Assembly (NCBI GenBank): GCA_039794005.1
Contig: JBAMMA010000010.1
Coordinates: 2,825 to 35,427, forward strand
Direction: 5' to 3'
From: Thermoplasmata archaeon
Lineage (GTDB): Archaea > Thermoplasmatota > Thermoplasmata > Thermoplasmatales > ARK-15
Length of the DNA stretch: 32,603 bases
Numbering within the stretch: position 1 is the stretch's first letter; each line of letters opens with the position of its first letter. Positions 3,801 to 25,215 of the stretch are shown one piece after another. The translations under genes and the position numbers were made by a program. The notes beneath the pieces are model-generated. The model had not been told where the DNA came from, did no database searches, and saw nothing but the letters and a program-made list of their open reading frames with translations.

Positions 3801-4906
3801 TAATGGAGTCTCAGTTGATGATATCGGCAAAATATGGTAATATCACATTCACAACAAATGGTGTAAATGTAATGAATGCAGGTCCTATATTGGTATCAGG
3901 TTTGACAACGGTTATAAATGGATTCGGCAGTGGTACAGTTTCAGGTGAAATTGAAATTTCAAACTTCATGCCAGTAAACATACATGGTACAAGTTCATTC
4001 AATGTCTCTGGAGTATTATATGCCCAGGGATTCTATGCAAATGGAACAGCATTTGGATTAACCATAATATTAAATAACACACCGGTAGAACAAAATCCAG
4101 ATATGGCAACATTAACAAGTTCAACGGTTAATTTCATTTACAATGGAACATATGCAATGGATAACAGTGGAATTTCTCCAAGCTATTCTTATACATTGTT
4201 GCAGGGATCTGGAGCATTGGTAATTTCAATATCTAATAGTACAATAGCTGAAATTGCTACAAAGACTGGCCAGATTGTAAATATTAGCTTAAAGCAATTG
4301 AATGCAAAGATAAGCAATGTATGGTCAGCCGAGAATACTACATATGCAACATTGACAACAGACTATGGAAATATGATTGCTGAGTTAAATTCATTGAATG
4401 CAACAATACAGAATGTTAACAGCAAAGGAATCGCAACAATAGAGACAAGTCTTGGTATGATTGAAACAAGCATAAACAACCTTAATGCAAAAATAGTTGC
4501 ATTAAATGGAACAATGGCAACAATATCAACATCGATTGGAACGATTCAGACAAGTATTAACAATATTGGTGTAACTGTAAATACAATCAATGGTAATGTC
4601 AACAATCTAATGGGAGCATCCGTAACAATAAAAACAATGCTTGGAAACATAACTGGACATGTAATTGCAATTGAGAATGGAACAATGAAAGTCGCAACAG
4701 ATATGGGCGAAGTAACATTGGCAATGCAGAATGTATCTTCAAATATGAAGCAGGTGGCAACTGGAGTTAACAATGTAATGATATGGAACATCATAGTAAT
4801 GATCTTGGTATTAATCACATTGGTCTTTGTACTCATAGTAATTCTACAGGTAAACAGAATTGCTAAGAAGACATCTCAGCATACAACTGAAGAAGGAAAC
4901 CAGTAA
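860..4906 (+). CDS. Large secreted, C-terminally anchored S-layer-like glycoprotein with coiled-coil stalk
   Basis: N-terminal signal peptide (MIRKGVLALFIAMLMVFSAFF...ALA). Thr/Asn/Ser/Tyr/Gly-rich, charge-poor beta-type body with many N-x-S/T sequons. Repeated stalk at ~4346-4770, TM helix at ~4775-4852, then basic RIAKK. Confidence 0.75.
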   Translation: MKSAMIRKGVLALFIAMLMVFSAFFVTSPALATKPQTIGTVTFNPSTGAFPGQLVTYTWSDINIPLVPPVYVTVYINGVPYYTSLASYSSNTITGSFTMPNGQPGTTYSIFLEYKDSAGNYGVSNTVNGKMNVNLYAAPTSIGSTATTTYEDSISMPVTITGTVNYTKPEVVSAIFTDGSNVLNGYMNSTFNVSNSKTTISSINMSNANVKVGNIFGGLQEFSQVYKYQNISMNATAYNGGTVNPALPASSSFKSTFTVQGNDITSISLIAYINQTVNGQDVSFLLNGKYTNKITSTGNYTMIGTISAVKPSSLKSAFSGSMSAAYNIVSYYQGSSYTYVNYTLSVTLNGNTADNIVILKAQYINTNTINSKDTTTLPTTTVTSTDELSVQSGYTFQSISVGLKNPGISGTFIQNYSNGKLQTGNLSFSFKNYTNGALSGTFTWKDNMTGLSVSLFNTTLSGYLYLNITTNNYSPGVAYISPAVWNYTSKTTVYLINKTTGINISGISSFTTQFTTQVLVSGQTTPVYLNNTEVTINTTFYDKIGYPYLIQVVVPYTQIELTYNNEIAFIQQNFSLVTSPVNLTVGSHKFTTLYSEIKGFNITLTNSNGYLYMNVTSENYTLYGFKQNGDVSYYLQINGTVTSNHVGEVYKANYTNMSYKQILLNQYNGISTDTLSANLTVIFTITEIYGTISKGMASTGSLTVTYPSYYGSITVNGKGTSGISSLDFAAGKSQSQTGVITSITNLTNTTVLGYYNTTFTVVKVVPGLFGLSSMNGYALILANTTIVNYSHSMKIDPWFKGMQYDKIVLTIYSTKVYQNTTFNEKSTSQYLNITGIGYGGYVNNVMISGSVTITDMYYAISNTYNYVGYVNKIPFFNTNTINVTTYLNYSSGSIPTDNNVSSSNLTAIIASPIVNLTLIPEYNMYLQVNITKLTSSMYGTNFEIYNGLLIGATKGIFNYANLTEISLNLDTSGNVFITATVMESQLMISAKYGNITFTTNGVNVMNAGPILVSGLTTVINGFGSGTVSGEIEISNFMPVNIHGTSSFNVSGVLYAQGFYANGTAFGLTIILNNTPVEQNPDMATLTSSTVNFIYNGTYAMDNSGISPSYSYTLLQGSGALVISISNSTIAEIATKTGQIVNISLKQLNAKISNVWSAENTTYATLTTDYGNMIAELNSLNATIQNVNSKGIATIETSLGMIETSINNLNAKIVALNGTMATISTSIGTIQTSINNIGVTVNTINGNVNNLMGASVTIKTMLGNITGHVIAIENGTMKVATDMGEVTLAMQNVSSNMKQVATGVNNVMIWNIIVMILVLITLVFVLIVILQVNRIAKKTSQHTTEEGNQ

Positions 4907-4960: not shown

Positions 4961-5026
4961 TATAAATTAAACAGAGAAAAAATTTAAATTATGATTTTTC
5001 TTATCAAAATTATAGGAGGGTATAAA

Positions 5027-8000
5027 ATGGCGAAACCCAAAATGAAGAAATATTTAGTACTGTTTATAGTGTCTATCTTTATAATCTCTGCTTTTTCAGT
5101 ATTTACAGCAGCATCTCTGAGTAACAAATTTTACACAATTCAAAATATACCTGTAAAGGGCTATAAATACATGGGCGAATTAAATGCAAATAAATATGTC
5201 ATTGGAGAGATATATGTACCATTAAAGAATCTAGATTTATTGAATTTTTATGTTCAGCAGATATCAAATCCAAATTCTCCATATTATGAGCATTATTTGT
5301 CAAAAAGCAAGATAGAAACATTATTTGAAAATAAGGCACAGTTTGAATCCACTTTAAATTATCTGAGGAGCAATAACTTTAAAATACTCGATACAGCGAT
5401 GAACTCAATTATTGTTTTTGAGGGTACAGTTTCACAAATTAAAAATTATCTTGGTTTGAATGTAGGAATATACTCAAACGGAACTAACACATATTATTAT
5501 TCATATGGAACTCCAAAATTACCTAATGTTATGGTATCTGTATCTAATATATCATATCTTTTCTTTAATAAACCATCAACCTTCATATCACCAAAAGATA
5601 TAAAGGATATGAAAAATAGATTCATGCAGGTAAATCCTGTATTTTCAATTGTACCATATTACACGACATGGTTACAAACAGTCTATAACGCTTCAGGTCT
5701 ATATTCAAAGGGTTACATGGGACAAGGAGAGAGAATAGGTATATTGGATTTTGGTGGAGATCCATACGTTCAGGAGGCCTTATATCAATATGATATGATG
5801 TATAATTTACCTGATCCTCCAAACTTTACAGTATATCCAATCGGTCCATATGATCCAATGTTTGGCGTAATGACTGGATGGAGCGGAGAAATAGAGATGG
5901 ATGTTGAAGCTGCTCACACAATGGCTCCAATGGCAAACATCACATTATTCATTGCAAACATGTATTTGGATCTCGCTCCAGTTATCGCAGAAATTGATCA
6001 ATATGCCATGAATTATGGTTTGGATTCATTATCTCAAAGTTTTGGAATATCAGAATCATATTATTCAAACTTCCCAGGACCAGTTGTTGTTTTTAATCTA
6101 CAGTTGGCTGATATATATTATGAAATAGGTTCTTTATTGGGAATAACATTTTCCGCATCAAGTGGAGATACTGGCGGTGCAGGTGATGGTGCTGGTCCAC
6201 TTGGAGCTACGATTTATCCATCGGTTTCTCCATATGTAACTGCAGTTGGAGGAACAACTGTATTTGTTACTGTTAACTCCACTTTTGCAGTTACCGGGTT
6301 TGAGAATACAGCATGGTCAGGTTATGGATTTATACCTGATCATGTAAACTATGGCGGAGGAACCGGAGGAATATCTGTTTTAGAAACAAGGCCATGGTAT
6401 CAGAATAATATAAATATAAACGAAATAAGTCCAATACCCATAGGATTTACAAACGGTAGAATGGTTCCAGATATTTCTTTAGAAGCTAATTTATTCCCCG
6501 GAATGGTATTTGTATTTTGGTATAATGGCGATTTCATACCATTCATTTCAGGTGGTACTAGCGAGGGAAGTCCACTTTTTGCTGGTCTTATAACTTTAGC
6601 ATCACAGTACACAAAATCAATGCATCCCTATGGAGGAATGGGATTGGTAAATCCGCTTATCTATTCCTTTGGTTTAAATAGTACAATTTCAAAGAAAGTG
6701 TTTGAACCGATAAAATTTGGATATATAATTCCCTGGTTTGTTACAAATGGATATAATCTAGCCACAGGATTTGGTTCTATAAATATTGGAAGTTTTGCAT
6801 ATTATGCTTCTATGGTATATAAAGAAAAGCAGAATCCTCTTATTATTAATGCCACGATATTGAATCCAACCAACTCCTACGGAATGAACGAATTTGTGGG
6901 TGGAGATCATATAATTTTGTCAGCAAACATAACATTCAATAATATTACAGTTACAAATGGATCATTCTATGCTTATATTGAGGATATATACGGAATGTAC
7001 AATCCAGTAAAATTGGTATATAATTCAAGCAAACATTCATGGGAAGGCACAGTAATCGTTCCATACAATGCAAGTGGTAATGGATATTTAATAATTAACG
7101 GAACTTATATGAATTATTCAACATCAGAATTTATGCAGGAATTCTTTGGTTATATCGTCTATTTCTTAGGAGATGCGGATCAACCATATTTAATGTCATA
7201 TAGTTCCATACCTGCTTTGATATACTATCTAAATGGAACCTTGGCAGGAAATGGAAAGATATATTATTCAGTTTTAATGTATTCAATATTCAACAATTCA
7301 TACTTCTCAGTATATAATGGATATGCAAATATAATAAACGGAGTTGCATATTATGACATATATGATCCGACAATGCCATTGGGTGTTGGAATCATTGAGA
7401 CGCATGGCGGAATGGGTATGTTCCCATTCTTCAACGGTGATTATTTACAAGGTTCATTGATTTTATCACCTCTTGTCATTGAACCATCTAGCGTTACACC
7501 TGGTTCAGACATATTTGTGCAAGGTATAGTGATGCCACCTGCAGATTTAATGTATATTGACCCAGATGCATTTTTAGAGGCATATTATTATTCATCAATT
7601 GAATTTTCATTGGTATCTTTCAATGGAACTGTTTATAGCAGCATTGTACTTCCCGTTGGTGTATTAGGTCAGTTACCAGTTCCATCAAATATAAAGCCTG
7701 GTTATTATATAATAGAGATAAACAGCTATTACTATTCATTCACATTGAATAGTTGGATTAATGGAACGTTCTTTGGAGAGATATATGTAGCACCACAGAA
7801 CTTAGTACCACAAATAACAATTTCACCTTCAACAGTATATGAAGGCCAAAGCCCAATAATCACTGCAAACATATATGCAAATAATGTTCCAGTAGAATTT
7901 GGTATGTTTTCATTAACAATTTATCCAGAATCAATGAACTATACTTATTACACAGTAACATACGTTGAAAACATACCCATGTATTTTGACACTGATTTTA

Positions 8001-8839
8001 ATGTCTGGATAGCACCACCAATATATACAACAATGCCATCAGAATCATCATCTAACTTATTATCAAGCGTATTGAATGGACCATACTATTGGCCAGGAAA
8101 GTATCTGGTATTACCTTTGGGAATATCTGATAATGGAATTCCAACACCCCCAACACAAGAATACGCTGCATCATTGATATTGTTGCAGGGTCCAGAATTG
8201 TTAATCACCTCTCCTGCAAACTTAAATGTTCCTATATACAATTCATCCACCATTACAATATCTGGAATTACAACAGGTTCCTTAATACAGGTTGTTTGTC
8301 CAGGCGGCGTTATAAATGCGACACCTGCTGCAAATGGAACATTTTCAATATCTATATCTTTGAAAAATGGTGAAAATCTAATAGAAATAACTGCATATGA
8401 ATCGAATGGATATTCAAATACAAAATACATATCCGTCCTATACCTACCACAAATTAATCAAATAGAAATTCAGATGCAGAAGATAAATCAAAGTTTAAAT
8501 GAAATAAACAAAGAAATGTACATGGAAGGGGCAAACATAATGGCTTTGAAGCAGAATTTAACATATCTTGAGAATAATCTGACAGCATTAGCAACTTATG
8601 TTAGCATATTGAATCAGACGTATGCTGGAAAGTTGACGCAATTAGCACAAGGATTGCAAAATCTTGCAAACAAGCTAAATGTGACAAAGAATGCCCTTGA
8701 AAATGTTGCCTCACAGGCAAACAGTGGCATTAGTTCATCCATGACTGTAGGAATAGTGGCATTGATATTTGCATTGATTGCCATTGCACTATCTGCACTA
8801 GAGATATTAAGAAAGAAGGGAGGAAAACAGAATACTTAA
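5027..8839 (+). CDS. Membrane-anchored multidomain S53 (sedolisin/kumamolisin) serine-carboxyl protease
   Basis: Signal peptide, then pro-domain (ISNPNSPYYEHYLS). Catalytic E-x3-D in GEIEMDVE (5888-5902), oxyanion Asp in ASSGDTG (6167), nucleophile Ser in GGTSEGSP (6560), plus GRMVPDIS. C-terminal beta domains, coiled coil and TM helix + RKK. Start moved from 4991 to ATG 5027 because GGAGGG lies at 5015-5020. Confidence 0.93.
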   Translation: MAKPKMKKYLVLFIVSIFIISAFSVFTAASLSNKFYTIQNIPVKGYKYMGELNANKYVIGEIYVPLKNLDLLNFYVQQISNPNSPYYEHYLSKSKIETLFENKAQFESTLNYLRSNNFKILDTAMNSIIVFEGTVSQIKNYLGLNVGIYSNGTNTYYYSYGTPKLPNVMVSVSNISYLFFNKPSTFISPKDIKDMKNRFMQVNPVFSIVPYYTTWLQTVYNASGLYSKGYMGQGERIGILDFGGDPYVQEALYQYDMMYNLPDPPNFTVYPIGPYDPMFGVMTGWSGEIEMDVEAAHTMAPMANITLFIANMYLDLAPVIAEIDQYAMNYGLDSLSQSFGISESYYSNFPGPVVVFNLQLADIYYEIGSLLGITFSASSGDTGGAGDGAGPLGATIYPSVSPYVTAVGGTTVFVTVNSTFAVTGFENTAWSGYGFIPDHVNYGGGTGGISVLETRPWYQNNININEISPIPIGFTNGRMVPDISLEANLFPGMVFVFWYNGDFIPFISGGTSEGSPLFAGLITLASQYTKSMHPYGGMGLVNPLIYSFGLNSTISKKVFEPIKFGYIIPWFVTNGYNLATGFGSINIGSFAYYASMVYKEKQNPLIINATILNPTNSYGMNEFVGGDHIILSANITFNNITVTNGSFYAYIEDIYGMYNPVKLVYNSSKHSWEGTVIVPYNASGNGYLIINGTYMNYSTSEFMQEFFGYIVYFLGDADQPYLMSYSSIPALIYYLNGTLAGNGKIYYSVLMYSIFNNSYFSVYNGYANIINGVAYYDIYDPTMPLGVGIIETHGGMGMFPFFNGDYLQGSLILSPLVIEPSSVTPGSDIFVQGIVMPPADLMYIDPDAFLEAYYYSSIEFSLVSFNGTVYSSIVLPVGVLGQLPVPSNIKPGYYIIEINSYYYSFTLNSWINGTFFGEIYVAPQNLVPQITISPSTVYEGQSPIITANIYANNVPVEFGMFSLTIYPESMNYTYYTVTYVENIPMYFDTDFNVWIAPPIYTTMPSESSSNLLSSVLNGPYYWPGKYLVLPLGISDNGIPTPPTQEYAASLILLQGPELLITSPANLNVPIYNSSTITISGITTGSLIQVVCPGGVINATPAANGTFSISISLKNGENLIEITAYESNGYSNTKYISVLYLPQINQIEIQMQKINQSLNEINKEMYMEGANIMALKQNLTYLENNLTALATYVSILNQTYAGKLTQLAQGLQNLANKLNVTKNALENVASQANSGISSSMTVGIVALIFALIAIALSALEILRKKGGKQNT

Positions 8840-13345: not shown

Positions 13346-13386
13346 AGAATAAGTTTTTTAAGTAATCATAAGAGGTGAATGGATTT

Positions 13387-14112
13387 ATGCAACCATCACA
13401 AATGGCTTATGATAGGGCAATTACGGTATTTTCTCCTGAGGGTAGGTTATATCAAGTTGAATATGCTAGAGAAGCTGTTAAAATGGGTTCTACAACAATT
13501 GGAATTAAATTTAAAGATGGTGTAGTTCTTGTCATAGATAAAAAGGTAAGGAGCAGATTAATAGAACCAAAGTCAATTGAAAAGATATATGTTATCGATG
13601 ATCATATTGGTGCGGCCTCATCAGGATTGATGGCCGATGCAAGAGCACTTGTAGATTTTGCAAGAATAAATGCACAGATAGAAAAAATAACATACGGAGA
13701 AAAGATAAGTGTGGAAACATTAGTAAAGAAAATCAGCGATTACGTTCAGCAATATACACAATATGGAGGAGTAAGGCCATTTGGTACATCATTATTGATT
13801 GGTGGTATTGATGATAACGATATTTCCCTGTATGAAACGGAACCTAGCGGTGCATTTACGGGATATAAGGCTACATGTATAGGAAAAGGTAGGGAAGTAG
13901 TAATTTCCCTATTTGAAAGGGAATATCAGGATAATCTTGACCTAGAAGGAGCAATAATGTTGGCATTGAAGGGAATAAAATCAGTTTTAGAGGAGCCAAA
14001 CCAACCGTTGGTTGTTGAAATCGGAATGATCAGGAGAGGGCAGAATTTCAGGATATTATCAAACGAAGAGGTGGATGAATACATCAAAAAGTTCAATGCA
14101 ATGAACAAATGA
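13387..14112 (+). CDS. psmA: Proteasome subunit alpha
   Basis: MQPSQMAYDRAITVFSPEGRLYQVEYAREAV gate motif and TQYGGVRPFG. Start moved to ATG 13387 because the GTG at 13375 is part of the SD GAGGTGA. Confidence 0.97.
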   Translation: MQPSQMAYDRAITVFSPEGRLYQVEYAREAVKMGSTTIGIKFKDGVVLVIDKKVRSRLIEPKSIEKIYVIDDHIGAASSGLMADARALVDFARINAQIEKITYGEKISVETLVKKISDYVQQYTQYGGVRPFGTSLLIGGIDDNDISLYETEPSGAFTGYKATCIGKGREVVISLFEREYQDNLDLEGAIMLALKGIKSVLEEPNQPLVVEIGMIRRGQNFRILSNEEVDEYIKKFNAMNK

Positions 14113-14121
14113 GGGAATAAT

Positions 14122-14820
14122 ATGGTAAGGCTGGAGGATGCTGTTGTTGCTAGGTATGAATATAAAGGTCACCATTTTGAGATTTTAATAGATCCAAACA
14201 TAATAGATGCTGTGAAGGAGGGAAAGATAAAAAACATAGTGGATTATATGGTCATAGATCAGGTATTCAAAGATGCCAGGAAGGGAGATAGAATAGGTGA
14301 GGAAATACTAAAAGAAGTATTTGGAACAACGGATATAAACGAAATTGCTAAAATAATAATAACGAAGGGACAGGTTCAGCTCACAACTGAACAAAGGAGA
14401 AAGATGCTTGAGGATAAGAAAAAGCAGATAGTTGCAGAGATTGCAAAGAATGCAATCAATCCTCAGACTAACACTCCCCATCCTCCACAGAGGATAGAAA
14501 AAGCCATTGAGGAGGCAAAGGTTCATATAGATCCTTTTAAGAGTGTTCAGGAACAAATACCCATTGTCATTAAAGCAATAAGTAAACTTATACCTATAAA
14601 GATAGAAAAGCTCAAAATTGAGATCAAGGTAAGTGGAGATGCTTATGGAAAAATATATCAAGACCTGGTGAGGATGGGTACACTGATAAGGGAAGAATGG
14701 TTGGACAATGGAAGTTGGGTGGGGGTCGTCGAAATCCCTGCAGGTATGCAGGTGGAATTTTTCGACCTTTTAAATAAGAAATTACATGGAAATCTTGAAG
14801 CAAAGATATTAAAAGGGTGA
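14122..14820 (+). CDS. sdo1: Ribosome maturation factor SBDS/Sdo1
   Basis: AVVARY...[47 protein letters not shown]; canonical position in the exosome operon. Confidence 0.96.
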
Positions 14821-14826
14821 AAAATA

Positions 14827-15489
14827 ATGGAAAATAACATAAGAGAGATTGTTTTACCAGGAGAGATTATTGATCTCCAGGGAAATAAACCCGGAACAGG
14901 AATATATATGGAAAATGGTATCGCATATTCCGAAATACTGGGCGTTAAAACCATAAGGGCAGGGTATGTTAATATTATACCACTTTCCGGAAGGTATCAT
15001 CCACAGAAGGGAGATAAGGTAATTGGAAAGGTAATCGATATCATGCCATCAAACTGGGTATTGGATATAAATGCACCGTACCTGGCGCCTTTGCACGCAA
15101 ATGAAACCCCTTGGAAGATCGAATTTGGAGATACGGGTAAATATTTGAACATTGGAGATACCGTTCTTGCAAAGATAATAAGCGTTAATGAAGTAAAACA
15201 GGTATGGCTTTCAATGAAAGAACAGGGATTAAGAAAATTGGAAGGTGGACATGTAATATCTGTATCACCTACCAAGGTTCCAAGAATCATTGGAAAGGAA
15301 GGATCAATGATTAAAATGTTAAAGGATATGACGAATACAAAAATTTACATTGGACAGAACGGTGTAATTTGGATTGATGGTGAAACGGATAATATACTAA
15401 AGGTTGTTGGTGCTATAAGAATGATAGAGAGGGAAGCACATACAATTGGTCTGACCGATAGAATTAAAGAATATTTAAACAAAAGTTAA
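14827..15489 (+). CDS. rrp4: Exosome RNA-binding subunit Rrp4
   Basis: IVLPGE N-terminus, S1 domain (YHPQKGDKVIGKV), KH domain (KVPRIIGKEGSMI, IGQNGVIW), REAHTIGLTDRI. Confidence 0.96.
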   Translation: MENNIREIVLPGEIIDLQGNKPGTGIYMENGIAYSEILGVKTIRAGYVNIIPLSGRYHPQKGDKVIGKVIDIMPSNWVLDINAPYLAPLHANETPWKIEFGDTGKYLNIGDTVLAKIISVNEVKQVWLSMKEQGLRKLEGGHVISVSPTKVPRIIGKEGSMIKMLKDMTNTKIYIGQNGVIWIDGETDNILKVVGAIRMIEREAHTIGLTDRIKEYLNKS

Positions 15490-15501
15490 AGGTGATATAA
15501 A

Positions 15502-16248
15502 ATGTCAGGAATGAAAAATGATATAAAATTGATTGATGAATCTGGAAGGAGGATAGACGGTAGATTGTATAATGAAATGAGGCCCGTAAAAATTGAGGCA
15601 GGTGTTTTGGAAAGAGCAGACGGGTCTGCGTACATAGAATGGGGAAACAACAAGATTATTGCAGCTGTATTTGGTCCTAGGGAAATATATCCAAAGCATA
15701 TTCAGGACCCTAGCAGAGCTGTTTTAAGGGCTAGATATAACATGGCTGCATTTAGCGTGGATGAAAGGAAGAAACCAGGACCGGATAGGAGGTCAGTAGA
15801 ATTATCACTGGTTATATCAAATGCATTGAGTTCTGTAGTATTTTTGGAGCAATACCCGAGAACTTCTATAGATGTATTCATTGAAGTTTTACAGGCCGAT
15901 GCAGGAACTAGAATAGCAGGTTTGACTGCAGCATCCGTGGCCCTTGCAGACGCAGGTATTCCAATGAAAGATTTGATAGCGGGATGCGCTGTAGGAAAGA
16001 TTGAAAACAGAATAGTTTTAGATTTAAACAAGGAAGAGGATAATTATGGTCAGGCCGACATGCCTGTTGCAATAATTCCAAGGACTCAGGAAATCGTGCT
16101 TTTCCAGATGGATGGTGACATGGATGACTCTGAAATAAAAGAAGGCCTGAAACTTGCGATAGATGCGGCCATGAAAATATATGAATTGGAAAAGCAAGCA
16201 CTCAGAAATAAATACGTTAAATTGGCCGGAGGCGATTTTGATGAGTAA
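15502..16248 (+). CDS. rrp41: Exosome catalytic subunit Rrp41
   Basis: RIDGR, RADGSAYIEWG, PDRRSVE, ADAGTR phosphate site, DLNKEEDNYGQAD catalytic acidic motif. Confidence 0.97.
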   Translation: MSGMKNDIKLIDESGRRIDGRLYNEMRPVKIEAGVLERADGSAYIEWGNNKIIAAVFGPREIYPKHIQDPSRAVLRARYNMAAFSVDERKKPGPDRRSVELSLVISNALSSVVFLEQYPRTSIDVFIEVLQADAGTRIAGLTAASVALADAGIPMKDLIAGCAVGKIENRIVLDLNKEEDNYGQADMPVAIIPRTQEIVLFQMDGDMDDSEIKEGLKLAIDAAMKIYELEKQALRNKYVKLAGGDFDE

Positions 16249-17035
16249 ATTCACAGAGAATGTTGTTTCAGAAATTACTAAAGATTATATTAAAAAATTG
16301 TTGGAGAAAGGTACCAGATTGGATGGAAGAAATCATGATGAATACAGGAAGATTGAGGTTCAAAGGAATTTTATACCTAGAGCCGAAGGTTCCGCACTGG
16401 TGAAGATTGGAAAGACACAGGTTTTGGTAGGAATCAAAGTTGAAAAAGGAATGCCTTTTCCTGATACTCCAAACATGGGTATTTTAGCAACAAATGCGGA
16501 ATTAGTACCGTTAGCGAGTCCCACATTCGAGCCAGGCCCTCCCGGAGAAGAAGCAATAGAGCTTGCCAGGGTAGTGGACCGTGGAATCAGGGAGGGTAAG
16601 GTTGTAGATCTTGAAAAATTGGTCATAAAAGAGAATGAATTGGTATGGGTAATATTTATAGACATTCATGTTTTAGATTATGATGGAAATCTGTTCGATG
16701 CCTCATCACTCGCCACCATGATTGCACTTTTGGATACATATGTTCCGGCAAAAAAGAACAATCTGGGAGAAGATTTCAAGTTACCGATAAATCACATTGC
16801 AGTTGCAAATACATTTGTAAAGATTGGAAACAAGATAGTGGTTGATCCAAACCTGGATGAAGAAAACATTGCATCCGCAAGGATAACGATTTCAACCACA
16901 GAGGATGGAAGGGTACACGCAATACAAAAAGGTCTTGAAGGTTCATTCACAGTAGAAGAAATTTTAAACATAATTGAAATGTCAAAGAAAATAGGAAAAG
17001 ATATAAGGGAAAACGTAATAATGAAGAGGGATTGA
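16241..17035 (+). CDS. rrp42: Exosome subunit Rrp42
   Basis: RLDGR, AEGSALVKIGKTQV, PFPDTP, FEPGPP, ELARVVDRGIRE, DYDGNLFDA. Start moved to ATG 16241 (SD GGAGG upstream; overlaps the rrp41 stop). Confidence 0.97.
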   Translation: MSKFTENVVSEITKDYIKKLLEKGTRLDGRNHDEYRKIEVQRNFIPRAEGSALVKIGKTQVLVGIKVEKGMPFPDTPNMGILATNAELVPLASPTFEPGPPGEEAIELARVVDRGIREGKVVDLEKLVIKENELVWVIFIDIHVLDYDGNLFDASSLATMIALLDTYVPAKKNNLGEDFKLPINHIAVANTFVKIGNKIVVDPNLDEENIASARITISTTEDGRVHAIQKGLEGSFTVEEILNIIEMSKKIGKDIRENVIMKRD

Positions 17036-17036
17036 C

Positions 17037-17297
17037 ATGTCAAGAAGAACAAAGAAGGTAGGAATAGCAGGAAGATTCGGTCCCAGATATGGTGTTGCAC
17101 CAAAAAAGCAGTGGAAAGACATCATGGAACAGAAGATACAACATTATGAATGCCCAAACTGCGGCCACAGAACAGTTAGAAGGATAGGCACATCTATATG
17201 GGAATGCAAGAGATGCGGATACACCTTTGCCGGAGGTGCATATATTCCTTTTGTAAAGAGAGAAATACAAAAGGAGGATGAAAATGTCAAACTTTAG
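17037..17297 (+). CDS. rpl37ae: 50S ribosomal protein L37ae (eL43)
   Basis: RTKKVGIAGRFGPRYG, CPNC...CKRC zinc ribbon, FAGGAY. Confidence 0.97.
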   Translation: MSRRTKKVGIAGRFGPRYGVAPKKQWKDIMEQKIQHYECPNCGHRTVRRIGTSIWECKRCGYTFAGGAYIPFVKREIQKEDENVKL

Positions 17298-17421
17298 ATG
17301 TGCTATCTGTGGAAGGATTCACGAGGGTGAGCTGACACCTCAAAACCTCGTTTGTGAATGTGGCTCGACAATATTTTACAAGGAAAGGCCAAATACAAAA
17401 GTTACATTTTCCTCTGATTAA
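17284..17421 (+). CDS. rpoP: DNA-directed RNA polymerase subunit P (Rpo12); absent from the ORF track (45 aa)
   Basis: Manual translation MSNFRCAICGRIHEGELTPQNLVCECGSTIFYKERPNTKVTFSSD*: CxxC...CxCG zinc ribbon and IFYKERP motif. SD GGAGG at 17273-17277; canonical position after rpl37ae. Confidence 0.92.
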   Translation: MSNFRCAICGRIHEGELTPQNLVCECGSTIFYKERPNTKVTFSSD

Positions 17422-17512
17422 AATTATTTTTAAAGAAATTAAAATACCAAAAAAATTTTTATTATCCGTGTAATCTCACTTTAGATTATAGTTGGGGATC
17501 GGTGATCATCTA

Positions 17513-20500
17513 ATGCGCTTAAAAATGGATGAGAATGCGAAAAGGGCTTTAGGAATTTCTTTGATATTGGCGGTCATAGTATTATTTGGATTTTTCTTAA
17601 GGACATATTATGTTCTGGGTGTATCAGTTAATAGCAATTTTGGAGTGTCAGGTGGTTCTGATAGCTTTTACCATGAAAGGGTAATTCAATATATAGTTGC
17701 AACCGGACATCAACTTATAAGGGACCCACTTTTGAATTACCCTGTAGGGGCAAACGATCCCAGGCCTCCATTTTTCGAGTGGTCTGTAGTATCTATGGCC
17801 TATTTTTACCTGCCATTTGTGAAGGGCATGGGAGATGCCCTTGGATATTCATTGATATTGATATCGGCAATATTTGGTGCCTTAATTGCAATCCCCACAT
17901 ATTTAATGGGATCTGAAGCTTTCAATAGAAGGGTGGGTATAATCTCAGCATTGCTCATTGCCACAAGCGCATCAAACATGATGAGGTCAATGGCATCATG
18001 GGGAGGATATGACGTTACAATATTGTTCTTTGCAATGTGGGCATGGTATTTCTTCTTAAAAGCCGTGAAGACCGTGAAGTATGAGGTTTATGTGGATAAT
18101 TATTTCAATAGATCATTATTAATAAGGGGAATAAAGAATTATTTTGCGAACAATAAAAGATCTTTACTATATTCTTCACTTGCGGGCATAAGTTTTGGCA
18201 CCATTGTTTTAATGTGGCAGGGTTTTGCATACGTTGAGGTTATTATTCTCCTTTATGTAATGTTCCAAGTTTTGTATAATAGAGTGAGAAACATATCATC
18301 ATTCCACCTGTTCTGGATAACTCTATTTTTAGGTCTTTTTGCATATCCCTTGGCCATACCTTTCTATTATGTTGATGTTACTAATATATTCACAAATACA
18401 TATTTCAGCACTCCATTGTACATATGGTTATTTGTTTTGATATTCATAGCACTTGTTGAATTGACAAACAAGATACCCTGGACACTTACCTTAACCGTTG
18501 TAATAATTTTCATTTTAGGTGTTCTATTGGCTGGAATATTCATATTCCCAGAAATAATGATATATATATATACAGGAGAAGGTTATTTTGTAAAAACTCC
18601 AATTTATGCAACAATTGCTGAAGCTCAATCTCCAACGCTTGGTGTAGTTGTAATGAGCGTTGGAGTAGGAGTATTCTTCCTGTGGGTAGGTGGATTATTC
18701 TTAATGTTGTGGGACATGAGGAAGAATAGGGCTGAATACTACCTCTATTTCATCATCTTTTCATTGATTTCCGTATACATGGCATTCGCAGCAGCAAGGT
18801 TCATATATGAAGCATCCCCTGCTTTTATAATTCCAGCGGCATATATGTTTGATAAAATAGTATCAAGGTTGAAAGTATATGAAATGGCAAGCAGCATAAA
18901 GGAATTGTCATTCTCATGGAGGAGCGTTTTAAAAAGGGGAATAAAATGGAGCAAGGTGGTTTCAATTATATTGATTGCATTCTTGATCATTTTGCCAAAC
19001 ATGTGGGCAGCCGTGGATTCCGCAATACCATTCAATACCAAAGTTCAGTACGATCAACATATATACAATGTTATGCCATCATTCCTAAGGCCACAGAATT
19101 ATACACCTCCATATTATTTGGGAGCCTATGGAGTTGAAATAGATAACAATCAGACAGATCCGTGGGTGATGGCCTTTCAGTGGTTATCCACCCAGGATAC
19201 AAACTATCCTCCTGCTAATAGGCCTGGATTTATATCCTGGTGGGACTACGGTTTCCAGGAGATAGAGCAGGGACAGCATCCAACTGTCGCTGATAACTTC
19301 CAGTACGGTTATCAGATCGGAGGGCAGGCGCTGATGGCCCAAAATGAATCGCAGGAAGTATCCCTGTATATAGCGAGGTTGTTGGATGCAACGCTTTTTA
19401 ACAAAACGTATGGTCAAGGGGTACAGAATATTTTGATAAAATATTTGGGCGAGAGTGAAGAGCAGAAGATAATTCAATATTATACGGTTCTGATGAAAAA
19501 TCCAGCACCGTATATAAAGGAAATAGTATCAAATCCAAATTATTACGGTAATTTTTCGGCAAATTTATCAAATGTTAATGCAAAATACATAATGGTGATG
19601 GGAGATCTTTCAAATAAATATAGTGAAGAAACATTGGTGAATTTATACATTTCATTGGAAAGATACACCGGTCTTGGAATTGAGTATTTTGCAACGGATT
19701 ATAGGCTATTCCCGTTATCTGGAATGAACACGGGTATATTCTATGCTCCTGCATATCTTTCTGGAAGAGTAACCGAGATAATAAATGGCGAATTCATACC
19801 AATAGATTTTTACAACATTGTGGCCGTGGATGTCAATGGAAATATTTACCCATTAAATCGAATTCCAGCAAATGCACAGATAGTGAATTATGAGATTGAA
19901 TACAAGCCAATGTTTTTCAAGACAATGTTATACAGAGCATATGTTGGATATTCAGGAATGAATCTGGGAATGGGCCCCCAGATACCCGGGTTATCCACAA
20001 ACATGTCCTATTATCCAATAATGCCGGCATGGAATTTAACACATTTTGAAGTGGTATATTCAATGTCTTTTTGGAATCCATACAAAAATTACCAGAACCA
20101 TTCAGATGCATGGAGGCCAGTTCCTTTGGAGGAGGCATATTATTTGCAAAAGACGAATAACGGTACTGTAGTACTATTCCCATCGGCAAAGGAACTATTG
20201 CAGCAAAATGTAATTATATTGAAATTTTATCCGGGTGCGATTATTGAAGGACGTGTAACATTACCGAATGGCCAACCATTAGCAAATGTTTTGGTAACCC
20301 TGGATGATCAGTATGGAATACCTCACAGTTATGTTTACACAAATTCCCAGGGCTATTATAAATTGTATGCGGTTGCTGGAAATGATACCATAATAGTTTC
20401 AACCGATGGTGGATTCAACAGTTTGTATTTAACAGAAAAGACAATATTGGCGTCAAAATCGATATACGTTTCCAATGACCAGGCCCTAAGAATAGAAACA

Positions 20501-23500
20501 TCAACCAATGAATATGGAATGCCTAATTATTACATAATTCAGAATTTTGTCATAAATCAATCAAGCCTAAATGGGATGGTATATTATCAGTTCAATAAAA
20601 ATTCAACATTTTCACAGGGCGATATTCCCTTAAAGAATGCCATAATCTATCTAGTAAACAGCACATACAAATTAAATTATTCAACAGTCGTTAAGGAAAG
20701 CGGATACTATTCAATTGAAAATATAATACCTCATCAATATAATATATATATTAAAATGAACAACACATTCAGTTATGTTTCAAACATAACCTTGACTCCA
20801 GGCGAAAATTTAACCAAGGACATTCCTCTGAAGCCGGGAATTATACAGGGCTTGGTTTTATATGAAAATGGAACTGCTGTAAAAAATGCAACGCTTGTTT
20901 TATCCAATGGCATAACGGTAAAATCAACCAAATTTGGAGAGTTTACCATATATACGCCACCAGGGCATTTCAAACTATATGTAATAAAAGATGGATATTA
21001 TGCAAATCCGATTTCCTTAACAATAACCACATGGGGTATGAATATTACAAAGGATATTACACTTCAAAATGCCTACAATGTTACTTTAAACATATATCTT
21101 GACAATCAACCCGTTCAGAATGCTATGGTTAGGCTTATAGATGAATTCAATTTCCAAAACATATTCGTATTCCATTCAAATAATAATGGAATTGTAAATG
21201 CTCAGATACCCTATGGATATTATTCAGTTTACATTTTATACAGCAATGGAATAAACAATTACGCTTATATTGGCAATATTTCTGCAAACCAGACAATAAA
21301 TATGAGCGTTCAATTGAAATTATCATATCCCGTATATGGATATGTTTATGCCGGTAAATTCAAAGAGGCAAATGTGGAATTGATGTTTTTAAATGGGTAC
21401 AACTTCATAAGATTATATACAAATAGTTCTGGATACTATCTGGTATATTTGCCCGTTGGAATATATAACGTTGGAACATATTATACCAATAGTACAGGAT
21501 ATTATTCATACTATACCAGGATAACTGTGTCTGCTCCGATTCAATTAAACCTATACATGTCAAAGGCTTTCCCAGTAAATGGAACAATATTATATGGTGT
21601 CAACAGAATGAAAATGGGAATAGTATTTCTTGAAGGTCCACTCGGAATAATGTATGAAACGTTCATTTCACCGGATGGAGATTTCCATCTATACCCGAAT
21701 TTCATGGATTATAATGTCAGTGCAATAATTCCAGGATATTATGTTAAAAACATAACTGTGAGAAATAACTTCATAGATATATACATGAATCAACAGATGG
21801 TGAGATTAATAGGATATCTCAACTATTCGAAATATTACAATGGATCCGTTGAATTAATATTCCAGCATGGAAATTCTATCTATAAGGTTAGGACGAGCAG
21901 CAGGGAATATTCAATCTATTTACCTCCAGGGGGATATAATTTATCCATTCAGGCAAAGAATTTAATTGCGATTCCTGATATTACATTTATTTCTGTAAAT
22001 GGTGGCCAGAGTGAAATTGTTCAGAATATTTCCATTGATATGAAAGCAAAGGTAACAATATCGCCATATTCACAGAACGTCTATTGGTTTAACGATAGGG
22101 GTAATATTATAAATTATGGAAATAATGTAACATTGCCTCTGGGTTATTATAATTATTACATTTATAAGGGCAATTTAGGCTACATAGGATCAATTTTTGT
22201 AAACACATCGATCATCTTTGAAACTAACATGGTTCAAGCATACATTGTTGATATCAACATATTAAATTACACGGGAACTGTAAATCTATATATCGATTAT
22301 AACCATCATATAATATCCAAACCAGTCATGGGAAAAGTGACAATGATATTGCCTGAAGGATTCTATCATTTCTATATTTCTCAAATCGTGAATGAAACAA
22401 TCCCCACTCAGCTTGAATCTTCATATTATGCCTTCATATTCATGAATATGAATATAAACATTTACGTAAAATCGCATCCATATTTAATATATTTGACGGG
22501 TAATATAAATTCCGGAGGCTATTACACAAATATATTCCTCTTTGGAAATTACAACTATTCCTTCGGTGGATTCAACCATTATAATATATCCATTTATCCT
22601 GGACATTACGTTATATATGCATACTCAATATCCGGAATTGAAAAATCATACATAGGTGAAATTAACGTCATGGAATCCAAAACGTTCAACATCACATTAT
22701 GGAATTCGAGCATCTATTATATAAATCCAGTTGTTCCTTACCATCAATATAAAGGAAGATTCTATATGTTTAACAACACCTTCAACATTTCCTTGTATTA
22801 TGATGGAATACCGATAGAAATAGTTCTGAAGAGTGGAAATTATTCATTCTATGGAACATTTAACGTTACCGAATATGGTGTAAATGTTGAATACGTTTTG
22901 AATAAAACATACCAATTTGGAAGATCAATGTTTATAAATCCAATGTTTGAAAGGGTAAATGTAAATTCAATATTATTGAACGTTTTAACCCCAAGAATAA
23001 ACGCCAGTGTAAATCAAACTCTGACATATTATGTTGAGGTATTGAACAAAGGTAATCTCCCTGAAAATGTCACACTAGAAAGCGTTGGGATGTGGAATGT
23101 AACGTTCAATGAAACAAAGCTTTTCTTGATGCCTTCACAGGGCAAAGTAATAAAGGCGTATTACAAGGTTCAGGATACAGATACCCTGGGATTGAATTAC
23201 GTTCAGATTAGGGCAATTTACGGTAATGGATTGGTCGCGGGTGCTTCCCTCGTTGTAAATGTATCCCCCTATCACAAAGTATTTATAAAATTTGGAAAAC
23301 CCTATATTGATGGAAACAACATAGTTGTCAATTTCACAATCTATAACCATGGAAATGTGAATGAAAATGTTACATTCGGTGTAATAAATTCAATTCAGTT
23401 GTATTCCCTAGGGTGGAAATCCTATATATCAAATACATCTGGAAATAAAAATTATATCATTGTATATACATATTCATCAAAGAATCTCACTTTAATATTA

Positions 23501-23752
23501 ACACCCTATAAAGCTGCATATTCTCCTTTGATATATATTGGAATATCCTTGAACTATTCAAACATGCAGACAATTTCATACACAAATATATCTGTACCGT
23601 ATTTGAATAATGTATACGAAAAGATTGAAACCGGAAACATCAGTTATGTTATACCAAATTATGCCATTGAAATGGAATATCTATTAATTTCATCTGCAAT
23701 CCTATTTTTCATCACAATATCTTACATATTATTTAGGAGGGTAAGGAGATGA
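17513..23752 (+). CDS. aglB: Oligosaccharyltransferase AglB (STT3 family) with very long C-terminal beta-sandwich repeat extension and terminal TM anchor
   Basis: Multi-TM N-terminal region with GSDSFYH (17660), LNYPVG, TIAE (18611-18622), AARF, SWWDYG (WWDYG 19238-19252) and VADNFQ. About 1170 aa of carboxypeptidase-regulatory-like/CARDB-like repeats follow. Start placed at ATG 17513 after GGTGA (17501-17505). Confidence 0.92.
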   Translation: MRLKMDENAKRALGISLILAVIVLFGFFLRTYYVLGVSVNSNFGVSGGSDSFYHERVIQYIVATGHQLIRDPLLNYPVGANDPRPPFFEWSVVSMAYFYLPFVKGMGDALGYSLILISAIFGALIAIPTYLMGSEAFNRRVGIISALLIATSASNMMRSMASWGGYDVTILFFAMWAWYFFLKAVKTVKYEVYVDNYFNRSLLIRGIKNYFANNKRSLLYSSLAGISFGTIVLMWQGFAYVEVIILLYVMFQVLYNRVRNISSFHLFWITLFLGLFAYPLAIPFYYVDVTNIFTNTYFSTPLYIWLFVLIFIALVELTNKIPWTLTLTVVIIFILGVLLAGIFIFPEIMIYIYTGEGYFVKTPIYATIAEAQSPTLGVVVMSVGVGVFFLWVGGLFLMLWDMRKNRAEYYLYFIIFSLISVYMAFAAARFIYEASPAFIIPAAYMFDKIVSRLKVYEMASSIKELSFSWRSVLKRGIKWSKVVSIILIAFLIILPNMWAAVDSAIPFNTKVQYDQHIYNVMPSFLRPQNYTPPYYLGAYGVEIDNNQTDPWVMAFQWLSTQDTNYPPANRPGFISWWDYGFQEIEQGQHPTVADNFQYGYQIGGQALMAQNESQEVSLYIARLLDATLFNKTYGQGVQNILIKYLGESEEQKIIQYYTVLMKNPAPYIKEIVSNPNYYGNFSANLSNVNAKYIMVMGDLSNKYSEETLVNLYISLERYTGLGIEYFATDYRLFPLSGMNTGIFYAPAYLSGRVTEIINGEFIPIDFYNIVAVDVNGNIYPLNRIPANAQIVNYEIEYKPMFFKTMLYRAYVGYSGMNLGMGPQIPGLSTNMSYYPIMPAWNLTHFEVVYSMSFWNPYKNYQNHSDAWRPVPLEEAYYLQKTNNGTVVLFPSAKELLQQNVIILKFYPGAIIEGRVTLPNGQPLANVLVTLDDQYGIPHSYVYTNSQGYYKLYAVAGNDTIIVSTDGGFNSLYLTEKTILASKSIYVSNDQALRIETSTNEYGMPNYYIIQNFVINQSSLNGMVYYQFNKNSTFSQGDIPLKNAIIYLVNSTYKLNYSTVVKESGYYSIENIIPHQYNIYIKMNNTFSYVSNITLTPGENLTKDIPLKPGIIQGLVLYENGTAVKNATLVLSNGITVKSTKFGEFTIYTPPGHFKLYVIKDGYYANPISLTITTWGMNITKDITLQNAYNVTLNIYLDNQPVQNAMVRLIDEFNFQNIFVFHSNNNGIVNAQIPYGYYSVYILYSNGINNYAYIGNISANQTINMSVQLKLSYPVYGYVYAGKFKEANVELMFLNGYNFIRLYTNSSGYYLVYLPVGIYNVGTYYTNSTGYYSYYTRITVSAPIQLNLYMSKAFPVNGTILYGVNRMKMGIVFLEGPLGIMYETFISPDGDFHLYPNFMDYNVSAIIPGYYVKNITVRNNFIDIYMNQQMVRLIGYLNYSKYYNGSVELIFQHGNSIYKVRTSSREYSIYLPPGGYNLSIQAKNLIAIPDITFISVNGGQSEIVQNISIDMKAKVTISPYSQNVYWFNDRGNIINYGNNVTLPLGYYNYYIYKGNLGYIGSIFVNTSIIFETNMVQAYIVDINILNYTGTVNLYIDYNHHIISKPVMGKVTMILPEGFYHFYISQIVNETIPTQLESSYYAFIFMNMNINIYVKSHPYLIYLTGNINSGGYYTNIFLFGNYNYSFGGFNHYNISIYPGHYVIYAYSISGIEKSYIGEINVMESKTFNITLWNSSIYYINPVVPYHQYKGRFYMFNNTFNISLYYDGIPIEIVLKSGNYSFYGTFNVTEYGVNVEYVLNKTYQFGRSMFINPMFERVNVNSILLNVLTPRINASVNQTLTYYVEVLNKGNLPENVTLESVGMWNVTFNETKLFLMPSQGKVIKAYYKVQDTDTLGLNYVQIRAIYGNGLVAGASLVVNVSPYHKVFIKFGKPYIDGNNIVVNFTIYNHGNVNENVTFGVINSIQLYSLGWKSYISNTSGNKNYIIVYTYSSKNLTLILTPYKAAYSPLIYIGISLNYSNMQTISYTNISVPYLNNVYEKIETGNISYVIPNYAIEMEYLLISSAILFFITISYILFRRVRR

Positions 23753-24501
23753 ATAAGGGCATAGTTATAATATCCATCATGTTACTAATTATTTTTCAAT
23801 CCTACATTTCCATAGCTTCCCCGATAAATGTAAATGTTTCAGGACCAACATACGTTGGGACAAACACAACAGAAACATATACAATATATGTGAATGGCTA
23901 TTTCTATAAATATGGATACCATTTATTCCTCACAGGTGAGAATTTATCCGGGTTAAATCAAGTAGAGTATACCGGGATGTCCTCAAAGGGTGTATTCAAG
24001 GTAAACATAACGTTTCCTGCAATACCACAAGTGGTCGAACTTACGGTCATGGGAATGGGATATTATGAGAATTCATCAACACCATATACACAGATATTTT
24101 ATTACAAGATAAATGTTGTAAAATCGATACCTTTTACCGTTAGAATATACAATCCATCATCTTTGATAATAAGAAATGTAACGCTGTCATATTACCTAAA
24201 CGGTAATTTTATTGGAAATCAAACCGTATCATTGATCAACCCCGGTCAATATGAAAACATAACGTATTACTATGTTGGAACATTGAACCAGGGTACAAAT
24301 ACTCTGTTGGTTAAAATAAATTCATCAGTATTGAAATTCTCTAATCATTCCAATGTTTATACATTGAATTTTTACTATGGAAGTCCTCCGAACTATAGCT
24401 GGGCCTGGTATGTATTTGCTGTTGTTGTATTGGTTGTAGTATTTTTAATATTGATGGCCGAATTTTCAAGGAGAAGACCGAGGCCAAAGTGGAAAAAATA
24501 A
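23749..24501 (+). CDS. Secreted, C-terminally anchored Ig/CARDB-like protein coupled to aglB
   Basis: Signal peptide, two beta-rich domains (VRIYNPS...NVTLSYYLNGNFIG...INPGQYENITY is CARDB-like), TM helix, RRRPRPKWKK tail. ATGA overlap with the aglB stop. Confidence 0.75.
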   Translation: MNKGIVIISIMLLIIFQSYISIASPINVNVSGPTYVGTNTTETYTIYVNGYFYKYGYHLFLTGENLSGLNQVEYTGMSSKGVFKVNITFPAIPQVVELTVMGMGYYENSSTPYTQIFYYKINVVKSIPFTVRIYNPSSLIIRNVTLSYYLNGNFIGNQTVSLINPGQYENITYYYVGTLNQGTNTLLVKINSSVLKFSNHSNVYTLNFYYGSPPNYSWAWYVFAVVVLVVVFLILMAEFSRRRPRPKWKK

Positions 24502-25215
24502 TTATTTTTTTCTCCTTTCTAAATTTATTGCCTCTTCTAACGTTATAATTCCCTTTATCACAAGTATTGCCAGCTCCTTCGAAATCGTGATTTCATTGTT
24601 GCTCTGTATTCTACTAATCCTCTGGACATCTTTTATTTGACCTGATTTTATTTTATTTTTTATATTCTTTTTAATAAATTTCCCATTTTTTGTTGCAATC
24701 TTTCTCGCCGCCTCAATATTCCTATTTTTTATGGATGTTGTTTTATCCTCATTTATAATTTCCACCTCATAATCCCTGTAAAGTGAATTTATTATGATAT
24801 TCCTCCTGTGTATATCTCCCCCTCCAATTTTGATTAAAAATTTTGATGGACTGTAATCCCTGTAAATTTTATCTATAATGCTTCTTACCTTGTTTGGAGA
24901 TGTTATTTCAAAACCCTCAAGCATATATCCATCACCCAATACAACAACTCCCGTTCTCTCCCCTGGATCTATGCCGATTATTATTTCATCAAATTTCTCC
25001 TTTCCATATAAATAGCTCAAAGCCCTTCTCACTGCCCTCTCGGGATCACTTTCCCTGATTGTATTTTTAAATTCTTTTTCTGTATCTGTTATGACCACTG
25101 CTATATTCTTGTAGTCACTTTCATGGAGGTCGACGAAATCGAGATTTCTAAGCCTCAATTCCTTTAAAAGAATGTAATAGTATTTGGGATTTTCAATAAA
25201 TATTCCTATCTTCAT
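24502..25215 (-). CDS. Uncharacterised archaeal protein with RNase H-fold (YqgF/RuvC-like) core
   Basis: IIGIDPGERTGVVV first-strand motif; INEDKTT and NIEAARKI resemble the DERxTT and DxxAA elements of YqgF. Confidence 0.65.
   Translation of the reverse strand: MKIGIFIENPKYYYILLKELRLRNLDFVDLHESDYKNIAVVITDTEKEFKNTIRESDPERAVRRALSYLYGKEKFDEIIIGIDPGERTGVVVLGDGYMLEGFEITSPNKVRSIIDKIYRDYSPSKFLIKIGGGDIHRRNIIINSLYRDYEVEIINEDKTTSIKNRNIEAARKIATKNGKFIKKNIKNKIKSGQIKDVQRISRIQSNNEITISKELAILVIKGIITLEEAINLERRKK

Follow-up and report, generated by a model that had tools for sequence, protein, structure and literature searches.

The present work concerns a 32,603-nucleotide stretch of DNA from an uncultured Thermoplasmata archaeon (assembly GCA_039794005.1, contig JBAMMA010000010.1; hereafter the window), which codes for a giant form of AglB, the archaeal oligosaccharyltransferase (OST), of about double the usual length, and for a small membrane protein, here called the partner, whose gene overlaps the aglB stop codon. 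The two genes form a conserved two-gene AglB module, a conclusion which is well supported by their adjacency throughout the order and the class. The giant protein joins a predicted complete AglB core to an external arm of some 13 beta-sandwich domains and to a second membrane anchor. A physical pairing of AglB with the partner is plausible from structure prediction, and we give a somewhat better than even chance to the reading that the partner is a stoichiometric type-I subunit, which docks on the membrane-proximal end of the arm in a doubly anchored AglB.

The aglB open frame lies on the plus strand and runs from position 17492 (TTG) or 17513 (ATG) to 23752 of the window, giving a protein of 2086 or 2079 amino acids, respectively; AglB residues are numbered here in the 2086-residue TTG form. 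The partner open reading frame (ORF) occupies positions 23749-24501 (plus strand, 250 amino acids), and its ATG lies within an ATGA that overlaps the TGA stop of aglB. The features of the pair are as follows.

17513-23752, plus strand: giant aglB, 2079 amino acids from the ATG; TIGR04154 and profile matches; the only AglB match of the genome.
17543-19012, plus strand: N-terminal multi-pass membrane domain, residues 18-507, with GGSD and TIAE; assigned from hydropathy, motifs, 30 orthologues and a profile match to the transmembrane (TM) domain of Archaeoglobus fulgidus AglB-L.
19013-20236, plus strand: external catalytic-core domain, residues 508-915, with WWDYG at nucleotides 19238-19252; match to 3VGP and 3VU0.
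20237-23596, plus strand: arm of approximately 13 beta-sandwich domains, residues 916-2035; assigned from Pfam PF13620, an AlphaFold model, motifs and sequons.
23678-23749, plus strand: second membrane anchor (residues 2063-2081) and basic tail RRVRR; assigned from hydropathy, the model helix and 21 orthologues.
23749-23752, plus strand: ATGA stop/start overlap; a 4-nucleotide overlap is available in 35 of 45 loci.
23749-24501, plus strand: partner gene, with a signal peptide (approximately residues 1-23), domain D1 (27-124), domain D2, of CARDB type (127-210), a TM helix (217-240) and a basic tail.
24484-24498, plus strand: cytoplasmic C-terminal motif P-K-W-K-K of the partner; assigned from an alignment of 21 order-level partners and a genome-wide motif count.

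The initial annotation of this DNA had described an AglB core with a long beta extension, a second TM helix and a terminal RRVRR, followed by an ATGA-overlapping gene for a signal peptide, two beta-sandwiches, a TM helix and a basic tail. Hydropathy, motifs and the model bear out the first description, and the sequence together with a predicted model bears out the second.

Conservation of the aglB-partner gene pair

At the order level, 61 genomes were surveyed, including that of the window itself; the partner was detected in 58 of them and AglB in 60. The partner lies directly downstream of aglB, on the same strand, in 57 of these 58 genomes, and in the single exception (G016) both genes are located on contig-edge fragments. 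As for the three genomes with no partner match, AglB is cut by a contig end in two (G009 and G045), while the third (G055, 84% complete) contains neither gene.

The class-level survey covered 201 genomes, in which the partner profile matched 193 and AglB was found in 191. Adjacency was counted for the 123 genomes in which both genes were among the best 150 matches listed, and within these the pair was adjacent in 117 (116 of 122 when the unpublished genome G149 is left out). The AglB frames of the six non-adjacent cases are cut to 786-1856 amino acids, and the partner is found on a different contig; the range for intact frames of the class is 2057-2436 amino acids. The partner also follows aglB in all four genomes examined from a family (f12) with a weak AglB match and frames of 1868-1931 amino acids. 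In one complete genome (G207), where the genome search had missed the partner, the ORF after aglB matches a leave-out partner profile with an E-value of 6.9e-38. Named public loci, with titles such as Thermoplasmata archaeon, Cuniculiplasma sp., Aciduliprofundum sp., DHVE2 group, I-plasma and Methanomassiliicoccus/Methanomassiliicoccales, numbered 80, of which 61 were assessable; 59 of the latter carry a full-length partner at the AglB stop, and the two exceptions have interrupted AglB frames (1051 and 1717 amino acids). These loci were drawn from the same species collection as the genome survey and are therefore not an independent sample.

Since the arrangement of giant aglB and partner recurs in relatives, it is not a chance pair of ORFs. 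The initial annotation had suggested a survey of the aglB neighborhood for conservation of the downstream gene, and such conservation was observed in the order, in the class (among the matches listed) and in the named loci. Its remark that long AglBs occur in Thermoplasmata proved to be an understatement, as nearly all of the sampled genomes of the class have the giant form as their standard and only AglB.

The association of the two genes outlasts that of their surroundings. In a synteny control, the upstream genes for Rrp41, Rrp42 and L37ae were retained in 1 of 20 order-level loci and in none of 24 class-level loci, while a plain tblastn search recovered the partner in all 20 of the former loci and in 19 of the 24 latter. 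The junction was surveyed in 45 loci, namely the window and 44 relatives. A start codon in the partner frame overlaps the AglB TGA by 4 nucleotides (NTGA) in 35 of them, two further loci have a 1-nucleotide overlap, and the junction is no longer than 24 nucleotides in all 45. A look for RNA evidence over positions 21500-24900 of the window listed none. The pair thus combines one-strand adjacency across deep divergence with stop/start overlap, as in an operon-type arrangement.

Two alternative accounts of the partner bear on this gene order. The main one holds that the partner is a co-expressed surface glycoprotein, either a favored substrate of AglB or a component of the glycocalyx, and that the operon is kept for co-regulation with no stable binding to AglB. 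So tight and mostly overlapping a junction, maintained at class-level divergence while the upstream neighbors were lost, would be unexpected for a substrate. The other account regards the partner as a transient assembly or insertion helper (a chaperone or placeholder) for the arm and the second TM helix, rather than a subunit of the mature enzyme. Translation of the partner from the same mRNA, right after the last TM helix of AglB, would suit such a helper, yet the coupling suggests production at a ratio of about 1:1, whereas a helper acting catalytically would require less.

The catalytic core of the giant AglB

Judged by its sequence, the giant 2079-residue ORF appears to be the sole N-oligosaccharyltransferase of the organism, with a complete AglB core of the GT-C-fold family, whose enzymes transfer a lipid-linked glycan to the Asn of N-X-S/T. 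The diagnostic motifs are GGSD (residues 54-57), TIAE (374-377) and WWDYG (583-587). Across 30 orthologues, W-W-D-Y-G is invariant or nearly so, and S-G-G-S-D and T-I-x-E (here TIAE) are nearly invariant; the latter two would be candidates for the acidic catalytic motifs of external loops 1 and 5, of the DXD and TIXE types. A crude hydropathy scan detects nine strongly hydrophobic segments within residues 18-507 and none within 508-2062; the last segment, at residues 2063-2081, is YLLISSAILFFITISYILF, followed by RRVRR and the stop codon. The N-terminal domain of AglB/STT3 proteins comprises 13 TM helices, according to the sections of a 2023 review cited here (PMC10859629).

A core profile, built from the first 915 AglB residues of 30 orthologues and searched against the PDB, matched A. 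fulgidus AglB-L (5GMY and 3WAJ) with an E-value of 3.5e-36 over positions 13-620, as well as human STT3A (2.8e-13) and STT3B (3e-12). The C-terminal AglB domains 3VGP and 3VU0 match residues 555-647. The best named family model for the core is NCBIfam TIGR04154 (archaeo_STT3, archaeosortase A system-associated), which matches residues 24-623 with an E-value of 1.2e-53; its 182.7 bits are far below the curated cut-off of 450, and the giant AglB therefore falls outside that subfamily. With the Pfam STT3 model, no match to the giant AglB was obtained at E-values up to 0.1, and a Pfam scan returned only a weak AglB_core match and sandwich families of the CarboxypepD_reg type and related ones. Annotation resting on Pfam would thus miss this protein, despite its WWDYG motif and its clear homology to solved AglB structures.

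The genome (1.10 Mb in 20 contigs, 87% complete) contains one AglB match, and the same holds for the single-contig genomes of the order. A single match per genome indicates that the working enzyme is the giant form itself, which is thus no redundant second copy.

The arm and the second anchor

The arm was modeled over residues 900-2086 with 45 orthologues. The model is all-beta, with a mean predicted local distance difference test (pLDDT) score of 87 and a predicted template modeling (pTM) score of 0.54. Counting its strand groups gives approximately 13 sandwich domains, the boundaries of which are approximate, and a low-confidence linker (2038-2055) then leads into a helix at residues 2057-2085. 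Domains 1-11 are CarboxypepD_reg/transthyretin-like and the last two are CARDB-like; in the alignment, the former show a recurring transthyretin-like signature, G.Y...LP.G.Y, and the two C-terminal domains share N.GN. Pfam PF13620 matches the arm with 87.7 bits (gathering cut-off, 32.3) and an E-value of 6.7e-25, in three stretches of which that at residues 918-973 is the best. The Foldseek matches listed for the arm were to generic arrays of sandwich domains, with TM-scores near 0.1.

Conservation in the first arm domain (916-975) is close to that of the catalytic region. The remainder of the arm shows 20-30% identity to its orthologues with few gaps, which implies that the domain architecture is fixed. 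Over 1135 residues of the arm, 49 N-X-S/T sequons were counted, or 2.7 times the expectation from the arm's composition; the density in neighboring cytoplasmic proteins does not exceed 1.4 per 100 residues. All of the 21 aligned order-level AglB orthologues retain the C-terminal TM helix and basic tail.

The partner protein

The predicted model of the partner (pLDDT 86) consists of an N-terminal hydrophobic helix (4-15), two sandwiches (27-124 and 127-210) and a TM helix (217-240), after which the chain ends in RRRPRPKWKK. Residues 123-192 match CARDB (PF07705) with an E-value of 6e-5 and 23.6 bits, just above the gathering cut-off of 22.7. By VIA-align, D2 (model residues 124-214) resembles 2L0D (Z 9.5, root mean square deviation (rmsd) 3.3, 89 residues aligned), and further fold matches of the partner are 4XED (Z 10.8, rmsd 2.4, 92 aligned) and 3IDU (Z 9.4, rmsd 2.6, 88 aligned). 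The matches listed by Foldseek and VIA-align are to generic PKD, immunoglobulin (Ig), CARDB and macroglobulin sandwiches. Neither Pfam nor the model nor the fold search detected a chaperone-like domain, the partner being composed of two sandwiches and a TM helix only, and this, together with the expected 1:1 production, makes the transient helper an improbable explanation. BLASTP of the partner against AglB found no significant similarity (best E-value, 0.025).

Several of these properties would equally suit a surface glycoprotein that does not bind AglB. Its CARDB/PKD sandwiches are typical of archaeal surface proteins, and its ectodomain, with 10 sequons in 192 amino acids (2.4 times the composition-based expectation), is as rich in sequons as the ordinary surface glycoproteins of the genome. 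Moreover, 38 ORFs of the genome end in a TM helix and a basic tail, many of them rich in sequons. The partner is set apart from this group by its C-terminus. P246, K247 and W248 are invariant in all 21 order-level sequences, and the tail is the most conserved feature of the protein within the order; elsewhere in the class it varies more loosely (PKKKW, PKARR, PKPRK). Among the 1401 ORFs of the genome with at least 80 amino acids, PKW[KR] near the C-terminus occurs in one, the partner, and in none of the 37 other ORFs with a terminal TM helix and basic tail, so that it is not a generic anchor signature. A membrane-proximal FYYGxPPNYxW is conserved as well. The partner is furthermore single-copy in its own genome and also in the relatives searched, where no more than one additional weak match occurs, and this too argues against the glycoprotein alternative. 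Public records of its relatives are labelled 'hypothetical protein [Thermoplasmata archaeon]'.

The pair beyond the class, and the question of fusion

A wider survey sampled 151 genomes of the phylum. Several families outside the class have AglB frames of 2320-2850 amino acids, and others have ordinary ones of 1135-1430. At least one genome outside the class (G244, locus L071) has a gene resembling that of the partner at the 3' end of its aglB, and for five more (G265, G310, G290, G273 and G285) we infer adjacency of the pair from listed coordinates only. Two families (f56 and f38) possess AglB frames of approximately 3160-3230 amino acids with no clear partner; the best partner-profile E-values in the lineages with AglBs of this size were about 1e-5 to 1e-10, and locus L074 gave none. 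A long arm thus does not always need a partner, and the partner accompanies this one giant architecture rather than enlargement of AglB in general. The AglB of locus L074 itself has a C-terminal TM helix and is followed, on the same strand, by an ORF with a subtilase-like GTS motif, as read by eye.

A fusion of the two proteins, which would speak for their association, was suggested by locus L072. Its AglB, of at least 2587 amino acids, has one C-terminal TM helix and no downstream partner gene, and its C-terminus matches positions 130-247 of the partner profile with an E-value of 1.8e-16; a weak collinear match to D1 (0.02) lies just before. It is the only one of 49 AglBs searched to match the partner profile at its C-terminus. 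Loci L075-L078 code for giant surface proteins with multiple CARDB domains (887 to 2029 amino acids), and three of these four unrelated giants (L075, L076 and L077) end in a CARDB + TM module which matches the D2-TM part of the partner with E-values of 1e-18 to 1e-21. CARDB + TM is a widespread anchor module in the lineages of these three proteins, and the fusion argument from L072 is ambiguous for this reason.

No longer protein containing the partner was found, which is weak evidence, as only proteins of 439-2000 amino acids were searched. Two kinds of candidates were rejected. Frames of 800-1347 amino acids around partner matches in GC-rich genomes were considered as fusions, but in these genomes the actual partner gene begins at the stop codon of AglB. 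Frames of approximately 2000-2140 amino acids that match the partner profile in other families are not AglBs, since they lack WWDxG and have a zinc-ribbon-like motif at the end; the proteins of loci L065-L070, of approximately 1980-2140 amino acids, contain CARDB-like domains and a conserved C-terminal CPKC...C..CG motif of this kind.

Predicted interaction of the partner with AglB

The complex was predicted from arm residues 1539-2086 (548 residues, with an alignment) and partner residues 23-250. The interface score ipSAE was 0.43 (individual runs 0.45, 0.36 and 0.43), as compared with 0.00, 0.00 and 0.01 for three controls; at least 88% of the contacts were common to the runs, and the pLDDT of the partner was at least 79. 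To our knowledge, there is no solved complex which resembles that of the AglB arm and the partner, so that the prediction is unlikely to reproduce a known structure. In the calibration, 58 of 80 solved complexes and 2 of 110 mismatched pairs passed the mark; both of these mismatches, but only 7 of the 80 complexes, did so with scores of 0.60 or less. The interface that the initial annotation had proposed to look for was predicted, at 0.43 against 0.01 for the best control, yet only in the band of 'weak support'.

A pairing of AglB and partner, plausible on this prediction, would take the following form. The partner would be made from the same mRNA as the giant AglB by coupled translation and would dock on the last sandwiches and the second TM helix of the arm, and the docked arm, anchored in the membrane at both ends, would form a closed loop next to the catalytic site. 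The loop might serve as a glycosylated scaffold that holds the enzyme in position with respect to exported acceptor proteins or to the cell envelope, although this is speculative. The initial annotation had the arm and partner holding or presenting nascent surface proteins, a role that would be pure conjecture.

Several observations weigh against the partner being a bound subunit. The score of 0.43 falls in the weak band, where a pass in the absence of a good prior is more often wrong than right, and the predicted complex covered the C-terminal part of the arm only, with the catalytic core left out. Correlation of evolutionary distances ('mirror tree') between the partner and seven AglB segments in 32 taxa gave partial r values of 0.22-0.40 (p = 0.001) for five non-core segments; as all five behaved alike, no segment is singled out and the test is uninformative. 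The folds of the partner are generic sandwiches, and its wealth of sequons means that it could be a simple substrate. In addition, the AglB frames of approximately 3160-3230 amino acids in other lineages of the phylum have no clear partner, and the single apparent fusion is ambiguous.

The weakness of the predicted interface is also what the glycoprotein alternative would expect, whereas the near-zero scores of the unrelated controls are not. Taken with the retained junction, the single gene copy and the invariant tail, this leaves a non-binding glycoprotein unlikely, though it is the alternative to be taken most seriously. The weak contact would fit the transient helper too, as it involves the C-terminal part of the arm, and the data do not separate such a helper from a stably bound subunit.

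Comparison with known systems

The sections of the 2023 review cited here describe the OST of bacteria and archaea as a single-subunit enzyme (PMC10859629). They treat A. fulgidus AglB-L, which has 875 residues in its solved chains, in the same manner (PMC10859629). The giant AglB is homologous to this protein (3WAJ, 3WAK, 5GMY, 7E9S) in its core, a multi-pass TM domain followed by an external WWDYG domain, and exceeds it by a sandwich arm of approximately 1120 residues, a second TM anchor and a translationally coupled partner gene. All of the solved archaeal structures we know of are of AglBs of normal size.

With the eukaryotic OST (6S7O, 6S7T, 6EZN), the giant AglB shares a homologous catalytic subunit and a similar idea of accessory type-I proteins with beta-rich external domains, although here the accessory part is mostly fused to the catalytic chain. 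The initial annotation had drawn an analogy with Ost1/RPN1, Wbp1/OST48 and Swp1/RPN2. As a comparison of architecture it stands; a relation by fold or family does not emerge, since Pfam finds only CARDB in the partner and its fold matches are generic PKD, Ig and CARDB sandwiches. One might nevertheless suppose that the partner shares an ancestor with one of these subunits and has since diverged from it (Ost1/ribophorin I, Wbp1/OST48 or Swp1/ribophorin II). The likeness is confined to external beta-rich domains and one C-terminal TM helix, as known generally and from the cited sections of the review (PMC10859629). Pfam scans and a PDB sequence search revealed no relation of either the arm or the partner to eukaryotic OST accessory subunits, the PDB search with the partner giving nothing relevant, and none of these subunits is among the Foldseek/VIA-align matches listed for the partner or the arm, a result that excludes nothing. 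Full-length members of the partner family were found only in Thermoplasmata-related genomes among those sampled. Such archaea are not those usually placed near the eukaryotes, and common descent is accordingly highly improbable.

The partner has its closest parallels in CARDB/PKD/Ig-like archaeal surface proteins (3IDU, 2L0D, 4XED), with which it shares the fold of D2 and the usual anchor of a C-terminal TM helix and basic tail. These modules are generic and have no known link to AglB, whereas the partner, present as one orthologous copy fixed at the 3' end of aglB, carries conserved FYYGxPPNYxW and PKWKK motifs not shared with them.

Papers on these lineages (PMC3750248, PMC5155288, PMC10354927, PMC11407970) mention AglB, but their openly accessible text contains no reference to its giant size, second anchor or partner. 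No published description of the giant two-anchor AglB with its partner was found in such text, subscription papers and supplements being outside the scope of the search.

Neighboring genes in the window

Directly upstream of aglB, positions 13375-17297 (plus strand) code for proteasome alpha, SBDS, Rrp4, Rrp41, Rrp42 and L37ae, the archaeal exosome/proteasome row. A small ORF at approximately 17283-17420 (plus strand), between L37ae and aglB, contains two cysteine pairs (C..C ... C.C) and is zinc-ribbon-like, and an AT-rich box lies just upstream of aglB at approximately 17449-17467. On the other side, positions 24502-25215 (minus strand) code for a basic protein of 237 amino acids with a GIDPGERTG stretch, convergent with the partner gene, the two stop codons abutting with no gap. 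It has no hydrophobic segment and no Pfam or NCBIfam match; the gene occurs downstream of the pair in 18 of 20 order-level and 1 of 24 class-level loci.

Two long ORFs of the window, at 860-4906 and 4991-8839 (both plus strand), code for 1348 and 1282 amino acids with 57 and 28 N-X-S/T sequons, respectively, and the second ends in a TM helix and basic tail. No significant family match was found for either. They are probably surface glycoproteins and thus likely substrates of AglB.

Implications for archaeal N-glycosylation

In the lineages sampled, including those of the DHVE2/Aciduliprofundum, Cuniculiplasma, I-plasma and Methanomassiliicoccales records, the normal enzyme is a doubly anchored giant with a fixed partner gene. 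A broader proposal, possible yet doubtful at present, is that Thermoplasmata and some sister lineages have an independent multi-component OST, in which the 13-domain arm, the second anchor and the partner would form a cage or gate, tethered to the membrane next to the active site and required for the normal N-glycosylation of envelope proteins, with the PKWKK tail connecting it to a component in the cytoplasm or at the membrane face. If the pair is indeed a complex, it would represent a second, independent origin of OST accessory parts, and a supposedly single-subunit enzyme may work as a two-protein machine. It would then make a simpler model in which to study what an OST gains from accessory external domains.

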